Shown here piece by piece: positions 23,271 to 39,694 of a stretch of 64,000 nucleotides of DNA. The notes under the pieces are model-generated. The model was given only the letters and a program-made list of their open reading frames with translations. It ran no database searches and had not been told where the DNA came from. Source of the stretch: an uncultured Deinococcaceae bacterium (GTDB lineage Bacteria; Deinococcota; Deinococci; Deinococcales; Deinococcaceae); the NCBI GenBank assembly GCA_963783475.1, contig CAWANW010000018.1:22285-86284 (forward strand), in the 5' to 3' direction. The position numbers and the translations under genes were made by a program. Positions within the stretch are counted from its first letter, which is position 1. Each line of letters opens with the position of its first letter.

Positions 23271-24314
23271 ATGATGTTCAGTTCCGGTGCGACAGATCCC
23301 CTGATGCTGCAAGAAGCCCGACAGACCCCCGACGTGATCGCGCGGCAGCTTTCGGAGAACGCGCAGGCGGCCGGGGCGCTGGCAGACGTGCTGCGGACGC
23401 GCCGTCCGGCCTACGCCGTGACCATTGCGCGCGGCAGCAGCGACCACGCCTGTACGGTGCTGAAGTACGCGCTGGAAACCGAACTGTCGCTGCCGGTGGC
23501 GTCGCTGGGGCCCAGCGTTCACACCCTGTACGGCGCGCGCCTGGACCTGCGCGGCGCGCTGGTGGTCGCCGTGTCGCAGAGCGGGGCCAGCCCGGACGTG
23601 GTGGAAAACGTCCGCATGGCGCGGGAGGGCGGCGCCCTGACCGTGGCGTTGGTCAACGTGGAAGACAGTGACCTGGCGCAGGCGGCCGAGTTTACCCTGC
23701 CGCTGCGCTGCGGCGAGGAGCGGGCGGTGGCGGCCACCAAGAGCTACCTGGCCAGTCTCACGGCGTTTCTGCCGGTGATCGCGGCGCTGGGACCCGGTGG
23801 CCGACTTCAGGCGGCGCTGGAGCGTCTGCCGGAGACGCTGCAGCGCACCCTGGCACTCGAGGACGCCGCCAACGCTCTGGCCGCGCGCTACAGCTTCGCC
23901 CAGAACCTGCTGATCCTGGCCCGCGGCCTGCACTACGGCGTGGCCCAGGAAGCCGCGCTGAAGCTCAAGGAAACGTCGGGCATCCACGCCGAGGCCTACA
24001 GCGCCGCCGAGTTCAGCCACGGCCCCAAACGCCTGCTGGCCGAGGGCCTGCCCCTCCTGGGCTTCTCCTCAGCCGACGCGGCGTGGCCGGCCACCAGCGC
24101 CGCCTACGACGACCTGCGCGCGGGTGGGGCCGACCTGCGGACCCTGGGGCCGGCAGCGGGCAGCACCCTGCAGACGCCCGGCACCGGTCACGGCCTGACC
24201 GACACGGTGCCCAGCGCCCTGGCGTTTTACCTGTTCGCCGCGCACCTGGCGCTGGGCCGGGGCCTGGACCCCGACGCGCCCCCGCTGCTGAGCAAGGTGA
24301 CCAAGACGCGCTGA
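23271..24314 (+). CDS. Double-SIS sugar-phosphate protein, probable glucosamine-6-phosphate deaminase (NagB-II/GlmS-C-like)
   Basis: ARGSSDHA, VSQSGASPD, GEERAVAATKSY, EAALKLKE, AEFSHGP. TACAGT lies 6 nt upstream of the ATG. Confidence 0.88.
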   Translation: MMFSSGATDPLMLQEARQTPDVIARQLSENAQAAGALADVLRTRRPAYAVTIARGSSDHACTVLKYALETELSLPVASLGPSVHTLYGARLDLRGALVVAVSQSGASPDVVENVRMAREGGALTVALVNVEDSDLAQAAEFTLPLRCGEERAVAATKSYLASLTAFLPVIAALGPGGRLQAALERLPETLQRTLALEDAANALAARYSFAQNLLILARGLHYGVAQEAALKLKETSGIHAEAYSAAEFSHGPKRLLAEGLPLLGFSSADAAWPATSAAYDDLRAGGADLRTLGPAAGSTLQTPGTGHGLTDTVPSALAFYLFAAHLALGRGLDPDAPPLLSKVTKTR

Positions 24315-24318
24315 GGGC

Positions 24319-25317
24319 TTACGAGGCAGCCAGCAGCGTGTTGCCCACCGCCCGGCGCAGCCCCTGGATGTCGAGGCGGCCGTGGCGGGTGGGGTGGACG
24401 CGGTTGGTCAGCAGCGTCCACCCCAGCCCGCGCGCCGGGTCCACCCACAACCCGGTCCCGGTAAAGCCGGTGTGCCCGAAGGCCGCCGGGCTACTCAAGC
24501 TGCCGCCGCTCCAGCCGGGCTGAGCAGCCACAAACGCCAGCGTGCGTCCCGGCGTCTGAAGCCGCGTTGCCTCGGTCTGGGCGGCAGCGGACAGCCAGCC
24601 GCCGCGCAACAGCAGCTCGGCCTGCATCAGCACACCTTCCAACGTGCCGAACAGCCCCGCGTGTCCGGCCGCCCCGCCCTGCGCCGCCGCATTCTCGTCG
24701 TGCGTCTCGCCGCGCAGCAGGCGCCCGCGCCACGCGCAGACCTCGGTGGCGACGCTGTCGGCCGGGTCCGGGGCAAAGGTCAACCCGTCGTCCAGTGCAA
24801 AGTCGCGCAGCGCGTGACCCCACACCTGCTCCAGCACGCGCCCCAGCAGCATGTAGCCCAGATCGGAATACACCACCTCTCCAGGCGGCTGCATGGCCCA
24901 CGGCTCCTGCATCAGGCGGGCACGAATCGTCGCGGCCTCGCCCCAGGTGTAGAGCGGTGCCCAGGCCGGCAGCCCCGCCGTGTGCGTCAGCAGCTCGCGC
25001 AGGGTGCGGGACTTCAGCGGCGTGTCCTGCATCCAGCCCAGTTCAGGCAGGTGCGCGGCCACCGTGTCGTCCAGGTCCAGCCGGCCCTGTTCGGCGGCGC
25101 GCAGCACCTGGCGCGCGGTGAACAGCGGCTTGGTCAGGCTGGCGAGATCGAAAAGGCCGTTCTGCTCCAGTGGGACCTGCCGGGGCTGAAGCTGGGCGTG
25201 GCCGAGCGTCAGGGTGCTGCGCTCGCCCGCCGCATTGACCACGCCCAGGGCAGCCCCGGGCAGTCCTCCAGTCTGGACCGCGGTTTCCAGCAGTTCGCGC
25301 GTGCGATCAGGAATCAT
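24319..25317 (-). CDS. Beta-lactamase-family serine hydrolase (AmiE-like)
   Basis: FDLASLTK (SxxK), YSDLGY, FGHTGFTGT; coupled to murQ. Confidence 0.85.
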   Translation of the reverse strand: MIPDRTRELLETAVQTGGLPGAALGVVNAAGERSTLTLGHAQLQPRQVPLEQNGLFDLASLTKPLFTARQVLRAAEQGRLDLDDTVAAHLPELGWMQDTPLKSRTLRELLTHTAGLPAWAPLYTWGEAATIRARLMQEPWAMQPPGEVVYSDLGYMLLGRVLEQVWGHALRDFALDDGLTFAPDPADSVATEVCAWRGRLLRGETHDENAAAQGGAAGHAGLFGTLEGVLMQAELLLRGGWLSAAAQTEATRLQTPGRTLAFVAAQPGWSGGSLSSPAAFGHTGFTGTGLWVDPARGLGWTLLTNRVHPTRHGRLDIQGLRRAVGNTLLAAS

Positions 25318-26225
25318 GCTTGGCCTCCAGTCCGGTCTTCCAGCGCGGCGCGGGCGTGGCCGCCGTGGGCGTCCAGGCGGGCCGTGGCCGCGGCGGCACC
25401 GACGCCCAGTAGCAGCATCACGACGGCGGTCTTAACGCTTCCGCCACTCTGTGCCAGGGCCGCGGTGGCGCTGGCCTCGTCGGCCCCAGAGGCGTGGCAC
25501 ACCAGGCGCACCGCCCGGCCCTCCAGCTTGGCGTTGGTCGCCTTGACGTCCACCATCAGGTTGCCGTAGACCTTGCCCAGGCGCACCATCACGGCGCTGG
25601 AAAAGGTGTTCAGCGCGATTTTCTGGGCGGTGCCGGCCTTCAGGCGGGTGCTGCCGCTGATCACTTCCGGACCGGTGTCGAGCAGCACCGGGCACTCCAC
25701 CGCCGCCAGCAGCGACGTGCCGGGATTGTTCGACACGCCCACCGTCAGGGCCCCGGCCAGCCGCCCCGCGTCCAGGGCGCCCAGCACGTACGGCGTGGTG
25801 CCACTGGCGGCAATGCCGATCAGCACGTCGTCGGGACCAACCCCGGCGGCCCGCACGTCTGCTGCGCCGGCTGCCCGGTCATCCTCGGCACCCTCCACCG
25901 CCTCGCGAATGGCGCGGCTGCCGCCGGCGATCAGCGGCACGGCCCGTTCGGCGGGCCACGAGAACGTCGGGGTCAGCTCGGTGGCGTCCAGCACGCCCAG
26001 ACGTCCGCTGGTGCCGGCGCCCGCGTACACCAGCCGCCCGCCGCGCTCCAGCCGGGGCAGGGCCAGCTCCACGGCCCGCGCTATTGCAGGTGCGGCGGCC
26101 TGCACCGCCGTCACCGCGCCACGCTGATCGTCGGCCAGCACGCGCACCAGTTCCGGTACCGCCAGCCGGTCCAGGTCCGGGTGATCGGGGTGGACGCCCT
26201 CGGTGCGGCGCGGATCGGGCGTCAC
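25314..26225 (-). CDS. murQ: N-acetylmuramic acid 6-phosphate etherase
   Basis: [47 protein letters not shown] start overlaps the GntR stop. Confidence 0.95.
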
Positions 26226-38316: not shown

Positions 38317-38411
38317 GGCATCTCCTGGCCTGCAGGGCAGGCAATCTCGGGCGATCCGGCACCAGAACCAACTGGCAGGTACATCAAATGACGTGACCAT
38401 TGCACTGTAGC

Positions 38412-38449
38412 TGGTTCTAATTTGGTATGCAAGTGGTCTATAGTGGCCT
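38412..38449 (+). promoter_or_regulatory. Three 11-bp-phased repeats (TGGTTC 38412, TGGTAT 38423, TGGTCT 38434) overlapping a TATAGT -10 box (38439-38444)
   Basis: Read directly; same motif and spacing as at 27005-27059. Confidence 0.6.
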
Positions 38450-38533
38450 TATGTGCAGATGTCAGCGGAGAGAGCAGAGGAGAACGCCGCCAGGGTGCCG
38501 GCCCGGAATCACCGGTCCATCCGGCGGCCCCCG

Positions 38534-39694
38534 GTGACGCGCGCCCCGCGCCTGCTGGGGCTGATGAACGGCACCAGCGTGGACGGCATCGACGCGGTCT
38601 TGATCGAACTGCCCGGCTGGCCGGCGGCCGGTGGGGGGGGCCAGCCGCCCGTGTTGAGCGGCCCCGCCCCCCGCGCCACCGTGCTTGAGCACCGCTACAC
38701 GCCGTTTGCCGACGATCTTCGCGCTGCCCTGCTGGCCGCCAGCCGGGATGAGGCCAAGACCAGCGAGATCACCCAGTTGCAGTTCTGGCTGGGCGAGGCG
38801 CTGGCCGAGGCCGCCGCCGAACTCTCGGCCGACGCGGACCTGATCGCCAGCCACGGCCAGACCGTCCACCACATCCCTGCCCCCGATGCCGAGCGCGGCT
38901 GGCACACCCGCTCCACGCTGCAGATCGGCGAGGCGTCGGTGATTGTGGAGCGCACCGGCAAACCGGTGGTCTCGGATTTCCGCGCGCCCGACCTGGTGGC
39001 CGGCGGACAGGGCGCGCCGCTGGTGCCGTTCGCTGACCGCCTGATGTACGCCGAGGCTGGGGTCCGCCGCGCCGTTCACAACCTGGGCGGCATCAGCAAC
39101 CTGACCTACCTGCCGGGGCTCGACGAGGGAGGCGTGATCGCCTTCGACACCGGCCCTGCCAACGCCCTGATCGACGAGGCCGCCGAACTGTTCGGCCAGC
39201 GGTTCGACGACAGCGGACGCATGGGCGCCGCCGGTCACGTGGCCCCCTCACTGCTGGAGCTGTGGCACAAAGACGCCTACCTGAGCGCGCCGCCGCCCAA
39301 GTCCACCGGACGAGAACGCTGGAATCTCCAGAACCTGCCCGGCGTCTTCGAGCTGAACGCGCGCGACATCGCCGCCACCGTCACAGCCTTCAGCGTCCAG
39401 ACCGTGGTGGACGCCTACCAGCGTTTTATCGTGCCGCAAGGGCTCGACGAGATTGTCGTGGCGGGCGGCGGCGCGTACAACCCCACCTTTATGGCGCAGC
39501 TGCGGGCTGCCCTCGCACCGCTGCCGGTGCTGACCTTCGAGGAGCGCGGATGGAACTCCAGCGCCCGCGAGGCTGCGGCCTTTGCCGTCCTGGGGTACTA
39601 CGCCTATCAGGGCTGGCCCAACACCCTGCCGCACACCACCGGGGCACGCCACGCGGTGATCGCCGGGAAGCTGTCGCGGCCTGCCCGGACCTGA
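38534..39694 (+). CDS. anmK: Anhydro-N-acetylmuramic acid kinase
   Basis: [55 protein letters not shown]. Start GTG 38534 (alternative 38453). Confidence 0.94.

Follow-up and report, generated by a model that had tools for sequence, protein, structure and literature searches.

AmpG is the usual importer of peptidoglycan fragments in Gram-negative bacteria, as in the AmpG-NagZ-AmpD-AnmK-MurQ route of Escherichia coli. Recovery or consumption of wall fragments without AmpG is known in few lineages. Agrobacterium tumefaciens, from an AmpG-less lineage, imports muropeptides by YejBEF-YepA, an ATP-binding cassette (ABC) transporter (PMC9790009). In Bacillus subtilis, the genes murQ-murR-murP-amiE-nagZ-namZ are clustered and co-regulated. 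NagZ, AmiE and NamZ are secreted, and the monosaccharide N-acetylmuramic acid (MurNAc) enters by MurP, a phosphotransferase system (PTS) (PMC5061867; PMC8054146). Here, a locus of an uncultured Deinococcaceae bacterium is compared with these systems. It occupies positions 23271-39694 of a 64,000-nucleotide stretch, the window (assembly GCA_963783475.1, contig CAWANW010000018.1, positions 22,285 to 86,284), and encodes the anhydro-MurNAc kinase AnmK, the MurNAc-6-phosphate etherase MurQ, a probable sugar phosphate deaminase, a serine hydrolase, a regulator of the GntR/HutC type, a GHL10 lipoprotein and two ABC importers with the binding proteins SBP1 and SBP2. All coordinates are those of the window unless a contig or locus is named.

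The locus is interpreted as an inducible system for uptake and catabolism of peptidoglycan fragments, based on two Opp-type ABC importers without own ATPases; the probability of this reading is put at roughly three in four. It starts from observations, namely the gene identities, their joint conservation and joint distribution, and a shared operator. An earlier note, made from the letters alone, had described a distinct recycling system in which peptide-type ABC importers, the GHL10 lipoprotein and an AmiE-like hydrolase take the place of the canonical parts. One system of fragment uptake and catabolism with peptide-type importers is retained from it. A replacement of NagZ, SBP1 as a peptide binder, GHL10 as a core component and a wholly distinct route are not. 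The genes it named are all real and correctly placed, according to gene calls by third-position G+C in a window of about 70% G+C, followed by Pfam and NCBIfam models. The closest database relatives of the window are Deinococcus.

Conservation and distribution

A scan with an SBP1 alignment, limited to one genome per species, yielded 46 loci, 42 of them in Deinococcota. Neighbourhoods of 10 kb were compared. In the Deinococcota loci the GntR gene is conserved beside SBP1 in 35 cases, and MurQ (30), the hydrolase (26) and AnmK (22) are frequent neighbours. Less common are a BadF/MurK-like sugar kinase (16), GHL10 (11), NagZ (6) and the exo-beta-N-acetylmuramidase NamZ (4). At least one gene for a peptidoglycan-specific enzyme occurs near SBP1 in 37 of the 42. 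Such presence and absence counts are support rather than statistics, related genomes not being independent.

Several arrangements place the importers among the enzymes. Two Thermaceae-like genera of another family (g14, g15) carry on one strand SBP2, two permeases, hydrolase, MurQ, SBP1, two permeases, an SBP1 paralog (SBP1') and NamZ; GntR and AnmK are divergent from this block, and a BadF/MurK-like kinase lies alongside. Some Deinococcus encode in one direction AnmK, hydrolase, NagZ, SBP1, two permeases, BadF kinase, MurQ and GntR. A Trueperaceae genome has the order AnmK, SBP1, two permeases and NagZ, with deaminase, MurQ and GntR nearby. In Meiothermus, the SBP2 system adjoins the divergent pair of GntR and SBP1. 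Orthologs of SBP2 stand beside AnmK, SBP1 or both in six genera, and the divergent arrangement of SBP2 and AnmK occurs in at least four.

Joint distribution was followed in an even set of 121 Deinococcota genomes, including 62 Deinococcus species. AnmK, MurQ and SBP1 are present in the identical 45 species of Deinococcus and jointly missing from the other 17, one of which has a 50%-identical paralog only. A Meiothermus-like genus holds the three together in the same nine of 13 genomes, with the genes unlinked. All 17 genomes with SBP2 also possess SBP1, MurQ and AnmK, and SBP2 adjoins AnmK in ten of them. Synteny in six genera, shared presence and absence with AnmK and MurQ, and an operator at just these two promoters (see below) support the assignment of both importers to the system.

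In Deinococcus radiodurans R1, the same core cluster, including GHL10, is located on the second chromosome in the arrangement GntR-AnmK-MurQ | SBP1-perm-perm-GHL10 (perm, permease). Published locus tags are DR_A0213 for MurQ and DR_A0210 for a binding protein. DR_1571 was considered as the D. radiodurans ortholog and rejected; the ortholog, with 77% identity, is found on the 413-kb second chromosome beside GntR, AnmK and MurQ. A gene for a Peptidase_M3 oligopeptidase follows GHL10 on the same strand of chromosome II (L089, 15907-17622); its product could process stem peptides.

The distribution also bears on the purpose of the machinery. It may feed mainly on the wall debris of other, dead bacteria, so that nutritional scavenging rather than recycling of the own wall would be the function. 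The kit is dispensable, as the 17 Deinococcus species without AnmK, MurQ and SBP1 demonstrate, and in complete genomes the record titles place the locus on plasmids or second chromosomes. The pathway ends in fructose-6-phosphate, hence in catabolism, and the cluster showed no genes of anabolic salvage. Regulation of the substrate type and an exported lipoprotein predicted to cleave glycans point in the same direction. Recycling is dispensable in E. coli as well, however, and AnmK is specific for 1,6-anhydro ends, a hallmark of the own turnover by lytic transglycosylases. Scavenging as the main function is considered possible, with the balance tilted somewhat against it, and both uses are compatible rather than exclusive.

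Regulation

The regulator gene (26222-27007, minus strand) encodes a GntR helix-turn-helix domain and a UTRA effector domain (Pfam GntR, UTRA). It combines these with predicted operators at the regulated promoters, in the manner of NagR and DasR regulators. Operator 1 (27006-27070) consists of ATACCA-N5-AGACCA followed by TGGCCC-N5-TGGTAT and overlaps promoter-like hexamers; a promoter-like site is present at 27030-27003. Operator 2 (38412-38452) comprises the four half-sites TGGTTC, TGGTAT, TGGTCT and TGGCCT in a phase of 10-11 bp. Both divergent control regions thus share half-sites of the form TGGT(A/C/T)T at this spacing.

Genome-wide searches covered the 3.63-Mb assembly, which is 99.98% complete and in which 16,000 bases read as N. 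Only two strict phased pairs exist in it, one at each promoter of the locus. Orthologs of SBP1 or SBP2 in other Deinococcus, in Meiothermus and in Trueperaceae are preceded by the same phased half-sites. Importer 2 and AnmK are therefore tied to the GntR regulator by the shared operator. A genome-wide scan for half-site clusters gave none at nagZ, nagA, the ATPase genes or the deaminase gene, which thus cannot be assigned to the regulon.

Elsewhere in the genome, GGTGGTCTGAGCTCAGACCACC forms a perfect dre-like palindrome, accompanied by a third half-site, near an HD_5 gene (contig C13, 7427-7461; L028), and the 3 kb downstream are without a called gene. The palindrome may be the site of another regulator of the HutC/DasR type.

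Sugar enzymes and missing canonical parts

AnmK (38453-39694, plus strand) gives a full-length match to PF03702 with 270 bits (cut-off 24 bits). Its best NCBIfam equivalog, NF007150, scores 554 bits, slightly below the 585-bit cut-off. The gene is single copy in the genome. MurQ (25314-26225, minus strand) exceeds the 302-bit cut-off of TIGR00274 with 314.7 bits and shares 46% identity with E. coli MurQ over 289 residues. The double-SIS protein (23271-24314, plus strand; Pfam SIS) aligns over its full length with NF046059 (NagB_SO3506) at 301 bits, below the cut-off of 430 bits. It is treated as NagB-II-like, a probable deaminase of glucosamine-6-phosphate (GlcN-6-P) that would form fructose-6-phosphate in the last step. 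AnmK, MurQ and the SIS deaminase are thus present as the earlier note had listed them, the last as a NagB-II-like protein only. The deaminase gene is linked to the cluster in four related loci (L034, L055, L065, L083).

That note had also proposed a genome search for ampG, nagZ and nagA. It gave no match for ampG and located the other two. A NagA-like gene adjoins a ROK kinase gene about 41 kb past the end of the window, in agreement with the stated absence of nagA from the window itself. One NagZ is encoded in the genome, on contig C13. It belongs to glycoside hydrolase family 3 (GH3), lacks a signal peptide and carries the motif KHFPGHGDT...DSH. A replacement of NagZ by other parts is contradicted by this cytoplasmic enzyme, and in relatives its gene lies inside the cluster. 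The NagZ gene on C13 is part of a second amino-sugar locus (358000-367000; L027), where it is divergent from the gene for an SBP_bac_1 protein; a GH20 hexosaminidase and a further ATPase-less family-5 ABC system are encoded there as well. This locus could serve the uptake of chitobiose or glycans.

The lack of AmpG, MurP and AmpD, noticed for the window, extends to the whole genome. Searches of the genome gave no match for AmpG, for Amidase_2/AmpD or for a PTS EIIC domain; the last result implies that MurP is missing. Among the 121 Deinococcota genomes, none reached the AmpG cut-off of 350 bits, the best score being 26 bits. The N-terminal domain of NamZ (NamZ_N) had no match anywhere in the genome.

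Importers and their proposed ligands

Two ABC importers with family-5 binding proteins had been predicted for the locus, and the combination of SBP_bac_5 with Opp-type permeases was indeed found twice. Importer 1 consists of SBP1 (27137-28930, plus strand), a secreted protein of an oligosaccharide-type clade, and two permeases (29087-30097 and 30094-31221, plus strand; Pfam BPD_transp_1, BPD_transp_1_N, OppC_N). Importer 2 is encoded on the minus strand by SBP2 (36787-38319), a secreted protein of a DppA/GsiB-like clade, and two permeases identified by Pfam (35802-36752 and 34930-35805), which stay with SBP2 in relatives.

Neither ABC system includes an ATPase gene, and the window is devoid of an oligo_HPY ATPase. 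The genome encodes 18 family-5 binding proteins and three pairs of Opp-type ATPases, the pairs being located on contigs C13 and C5. Orphan importers without ATPase are the rule in this genome, and the majority of its Opp-class importers must either rely on shared ATPases or be inactive. Contig C5 encodes the nearest complete paralog of importer 1.

SBP1 had been taken for a peptide-type binder of muropeptides. Among solved structures, SPH1118 and an alpha-galactoside-binding protein are closest to it, and all peptide binders rank below them. SPH1118, given by name only in the search output, is presumably the binder of acidic oligosaccharides from Sphingomonas. In relatives, SBP1 is accompanied by cytoplasmic NagZ and cytoplasmic NamZ. 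B. subtilis NamZ takes MurNAc off the non-reducing end of glycan fragments (PMC8054146). A NamZ in the cytoplasm would be of use only if the cell takes up oligomers longer than a disaccharide. In the homolog search with SBP1, all entries listed were Deinococcus proteins under generic transporter names; more distant contexts were obtained from the scan of related loci and include a spirochaete homolog (39% identity) beside NamZ and a NagZ-like GH3 enzyme. Because of its oligosaccharide-binding relatives and its NagZ and NamZ company, SBP1 probably binds glycan fragments rather than peptides.

SBP2 has 5u4o, YliB/GsiB and DppA as nearest solved relatives, and the best NCBIfam model is GsiB with 217 bits. 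On these matches, importer 2 could be an ordinary transporter for di- and tripeptides or of the glutathione type, with a meaningless position beside anmK or with free stem peptides as its only cargo. We regard this as very unlikely. The divergent unit of SBP2, its two permeases and AnmK is retained in at least four genera, and in two genera SBP2 heads an operon with hydrolase, MurQ and SBP1. All SBP2-positive genomes contain the rest of the kit, and the SBP2 promoter carries one of only two operator sites in the genome. The binding site gives a weak hint in the same direction. In the alignment with E. coli DppA, an Asp of DppA is replaced by Gly in every SBP2 aligned, and Lys or Arg is kept at the carboxylate position. 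In DppA, this Asp holds the free amino group of the peptide and the basic position its carboxylate. These residues are weak evidence for an N-blocked ligand with a carboxylate, e.g. a peptide of 1,6-anhydro-MurNAc (anhMurNAc) or anhMurNAc itself.

The hydrolase

The gene for a serine hydrolase of the beta-lactamase/PBP4B family (24319-25317, minus strand; Pfam Beta-lactamase PF00144, 149 bits) is single copy and joined to murQ by an ATGA overlap. MurQ in turn is joined to the regulator gene by a GTGA overlap, so that regulator, MurQ and hydrolase genes are chained by 4-base overlaps, indicating translational coupling. The protein shares 30% identity with E. coli PBP4B/YfeW, used as a stand-in for AmiE of B. 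subtilis, and the SxxK (SLTK), YSD and HTG motifs are conserved. The enzyme domain starts at residue 7 and a signal peptide is missing, which indicates a cytoplasmic location.

The beta-lactamase family also includes AmiE of B. subtilis, to which the earlier note had likened the hydrolase. The likeness holds for the fold of beta-lactamases and penicillin-binding proteins, for the SxxK serine and for the gene position beside murQ. It fails for secretion, as the hydrolase has no signal peptide. AmiE, encoded beside murQ, is the secreted amidase of the murQ operon (PMC5061867). Our best guess is a cytoplasmic amidase, a candidate for the cleavage of (anh)MurNAc-L-Ala bonds, because the genome lacks an AmpD-type enzyme, while AnmK and MurQ need peptide-free sugar.

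The best named relatives of the hydrolase, PBP4B, AmpH and D-peptidases, allow another assignment. The enzyme may be a DD- or LD-peptidase that shortens stem peptides after their import, or an enzyme like PBP4B, and have no MurNAc-L-Ala amidase activity. Such a function would leave the demand of AnmK and MurQ for peptide-free sugar unmet in a genome without AmpD-type amidase, and the translational coupling of the gene to murQ also speaks against it. Natural fusions of NagZ with a beta-lactamase domain (PMC6987092) and the amidase AmiE beside murQ (PMC5061867) are further arguments for the amidase. An enzyme other than an amidase is on this evidence rated as somewhat unlikely.

The GHL10 lipoprotein

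A gene downstream of importer 1 encodes a GHL10 protein (31712-33256, plus strand; Pfam GHL10 PF02638, 126.7 bits). It matches Cwp19 of Clostridioides difficile (E 4e-15) and E. coli DigH (E 5e-21, 26% identity). A lipobox, L-A-A-C here and L-A-G-C in D. caeni, marks it as an exported lipoprotein. DigH is a lipoprotein, too. The description as a DigH-like GHL10 lipoprotein is thus borne out by domain and lipobox; the second Asp of DigH and Cwp19 is not conserved. The HMMER alignment pairs F-D-R-V-R-Y-P with F-D-D-Y-F-Y-P, and D-R is read in all 28 Deinococcota loci checked. The motif DG(V/I)Q(F/L)DR(V/I)RY(P/T)D was observed in every Deinococcus GHL10 checked, including the DogH type (L010-L026; C13, 231985-233568). 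In Cwp19, the pair Asp195-Asp196 was proposed for catalysis (PMC5765458).

Nor does the gene belong to the core of the locus. It is present in 11 of the 42 related loci, about a quarter and including D. radiodurans, always on the same strand and immediately behind the permeases or NamZ. Four genomes, D. caeni among them, have the order permease, SBP1', NamZ and GHL10, and in D. caeni NamZ and GHL10 are 23 bp apart. The nearest relative, with 95-99% protein identity and the same gene order, has 192 bp in place of the 2,055 bp that contain GHL10 in the window. GHL10 is therefore optional, a candidate enzyme for extracytoplasmic cleavage of glycan strands and a variable accessory of the system.

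Cwp19 is a lytic transglycosylase and yields 1,6-anhydro ends (PMC6016235). DigH degrades denuded glycans (PMC12288456). Production of anhydro ends, by analogy to Cwp19, would link GHL10 to AnmK. DogH, a GHL10 paralog of Deinococcus, was reported to make maltose from starch (PMC9967864). Together with the Arg in all Deinococcus copies and the absence from the nearest relative and most SBP1 loci, this report raises the alternative that the GHL10 protein is a hydrolase of glucans or other glycans, outside the peptidoglycan pathway and downstream by chance. Chance fits poorly with the recurrence on the same strand after permeases or NamZ in 11 loci, at 23 bp from NamZ in D. caeni. Cluster-type GHL10 and DogH are separate paralogs with 44-49% identity, the DogH type being present in all sampled Deinococcus species, and all GHL10 enzymes whose substrates are defined cleave the peptidoglycan glycan. 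A glucan hydrolase is thus unlikely, and the assignment of DogH to starch may itself deserve a test on peptidoglycan.

Proposed route

Outside the membrane, wall turnover would release glycan fragments with 1,6-anhydro-MurNAc ends. Candidates for the release are lytic transglycosylases and four Amidase_3 enzymes, together with the GHL10 lipoprotein in genomes that encode it. SBP1 and its two permeases would import mainly fragments of the sugar type, i.e. GlcNAc-anhMurNAc (GlcNAc, N-acetylglucosamine) and short glycan oligomers. SBP2 and its permeases would take up a second class, most likely peptide-bearing anhMurNAc, or anhMurNAc. Both importers would be powered by ATPases encoded elsewhere. 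In the cytoplasm, NagZ from contig C13 is expected to strip GlcNAc, and the beta-lactamase-family hydrolase to strip the stem peptide. AnmK would then produce MurNAc-6-phosphate, MurQ GlcNAc-6-phosphate, NagA GlcN-6-P and the NagB-II-like deaminase fructose-6-phosphate. A GntR/HutC repressor is predicted to occupy the phased TGGTMT repeats at both divergent promoters until a pathway intermediate releases it. Predicted in this scheme are the ligands of the importers, the activities of the amidase and of GHL10, the effector of the regulator and the ATPases that power transport.

Several findings speak against this reading. Transport would rely on a shared ATPase pair encoded elsewhere, and NagZ and NagA are without a copy of the operator. 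The hydrolase differs from the secreted AmiE in its cytoplasmic location, and PBP4B, its best named relative, is not known to act as an amidase. SBP1 retains a Gly-Asp aligned with the Asp of DppA, which allows a peptide moiety in the ligand. For GHL10, the Arg in place of the second Asp, the reported starch activity of DogH and the patchy occurrence count on the same side.

A more far-reaching version is proposed tentatively and is at present rather doubtful. In it, SBP1 and its paralogs would be specialised binders of peptide-free glycan oligomers, from GlcNAc-anhMurNAc to tetrasaccharides, and the first such proteins of ABC systems. The oligomers would enter the cells of Deinococcota, and apparently those of some spirochaetes, whole and be dismantled in the cytoplasm by NagZ, NamZ, AmiE-like amidase, AnmK and MurK-like kinase. 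GHL10 would supply the oligomers from denuded strands, and SBP2 would be specialised for N-blocked anhMurNAc-peptides.

Roughly three in four of the Deinococcus species sampled possess AnmK and MurQ, without exception together with the SBP1 importer, in a phylum where none of the 121 genomes reached the AmpG cut-off. If the proposed system is real, it would represent a second, independently evolved ABC solution. The exo-lytic set of NagZ, AmiE and NamZ would be workable inside the cell, GHL10 enzymes would gain a catabolic role, and genes now annotated just as peptide or dipeptide ABC transporters would obtain a function. The presence of the core cluster in D. radiodurans R1 makes the model directly testable.

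Remnants and neighbouring genes

Between the permeases of importer 1 and GHL10, a deletion scar is located (31345-31637, plus strand), recognized by comparison with relatives. The start of a lost SBP1 paralog (SBP1'), with its ATG at 31345, is fused to the last approximately 90 codons of NamZ (31362-31637). Homology with the nearest relative stops at 31360. The NamZ remnant (DUF1343) shows 48% identity to NamZ residues 276-363 (E 1e-16) and 68% to D. caeni NamZ. The small open reading frame 31266-31637 had no Pfam match and was identified solely via the relatives. In the nearest relative, a different deletion was observed at this position, and GHL10 is lost too. Since the second SBP1 paralog and NamZ are deleted, the kit appears partly decayed in this genome.

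A gene for an HD_5 (HD-GYP-like) protein follows GHL10 (33501-34205, plus strand; Pfam HD_5) and is a probable passenger. It was rejected as a cluster member, having at least six paralogs in the genome and no conserved position in relatives. The stand-alone HD_5 family has at least six paralogs (contigs C14, C19, C10, C3 and C15) with a mutual identity of 46-68%. In L022 and L077, two of the relatives, the cluster is flanked by GGDEF-EAL genes. In the stretch from the HD gene to importer 2, an IS1 InsA-like remnant with a zinc ribbon and helix-turn-helix (34226-34606, minus strand; Pfam Zn_ribbon_InsA, 27.9 bits, cut-off 26.1 bits) is situated beside a terminator-like hairpin (34654-34671). 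It may mark the rearrangement that joined the two modules.

A secreted DUF1175 protein is encoded after AnmK (39786-40526), and the window also contains an alpha-2-macroglobulin gene. DUF1175 genes accompany alpha-2-macroglobulin genes in E. coli. The gene was rejected as a cluster member, as its position after AnmK is shared by the nearest relative alone.

Comparison with known systems

A literature search found nothing on an ABC-coupled anhMurNAc system in Deinococcus; papers combining Deinococcus and MurQ were not about peptidoglycan recycling. The distinct ABC-based route of the earlier note is supported as to ABC import in an AmpG-less genome. It is better described as a variant of YejBEF-YepA and of the B. 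subtilis NagZ/AmiE/NamZ set than as wholly distinct.

The locus resembles YejBEF-YepA in the family-5 binding protein and Opp/Dpp-class permeases of an AmpG-less host; like YejBEF-YepA, it would replace AmpG and feed NagZ and AnmK-type steps. The operon of A. tumefaciens includes its own ATPase, YejF, which has no counterpart here. Instead of one importer, two with dissimilar binding proteins are encoded, SBP1 being nearest to oligosaccharide binders. Catabolic enzymes and a dedicated GntR regulator are encoded in the same cluster, and AmpD and an AmpR/AmpC circuit are missing. Solved entries that are possibly of the YejA type, judged only by the depositors' name 'involved in antimicrobial peptide resistance', rank far below the top for both SBP1 and SBP2, so the recruitment of the importers looks independent of that in Agrobacterium.

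The B. subtilis cluster shares with the Deinococcota loci NagZ, a candidate amidase of beta-lactamase fold, MurQ and NamZ (in relatives, and as a remnant here), clustered and co-regulated (PMC5061867; PMC8054146). The enzymes of the present system are without signal peptides, a PTS is missing, and fragments would first be imported by the ABC systems. AnmK is present, and the regulator is of the GntR/HutC rather than the MurR/RpiR type.

NagZ, AnmK, MurQ, NagA and deaminase constitute the same sugar route as in E. coli, where a beta-lactamase-family gene is likewise found near murQ, yfeW/PBP4B following murQ-murP. In contrast to E. coli, AmpG, AmpD and MurP are missing, import would proceed by ABC systems, and SBP2 is closer to DppA and GsiB than to MppA. 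The GHL10 protein has the exported TIM-barrel domain of DigH and Cwp19, and its context points to peptidoglycan glycan as substrate. It differs from these by the low identity to DigH, by D-R in place of D-D at the end of strand 4, and by its place in a catabolic operon, whereas the two known enzymes are divisome and S-layer proteins. The Deinococcota system is new in having two dissimilar importers, a binding protein of the sugar type, exo-enzymes located in the cytoplasm, a GntR regulon based on phased direct repeats and a link to GHL10, and in the phylum itself.

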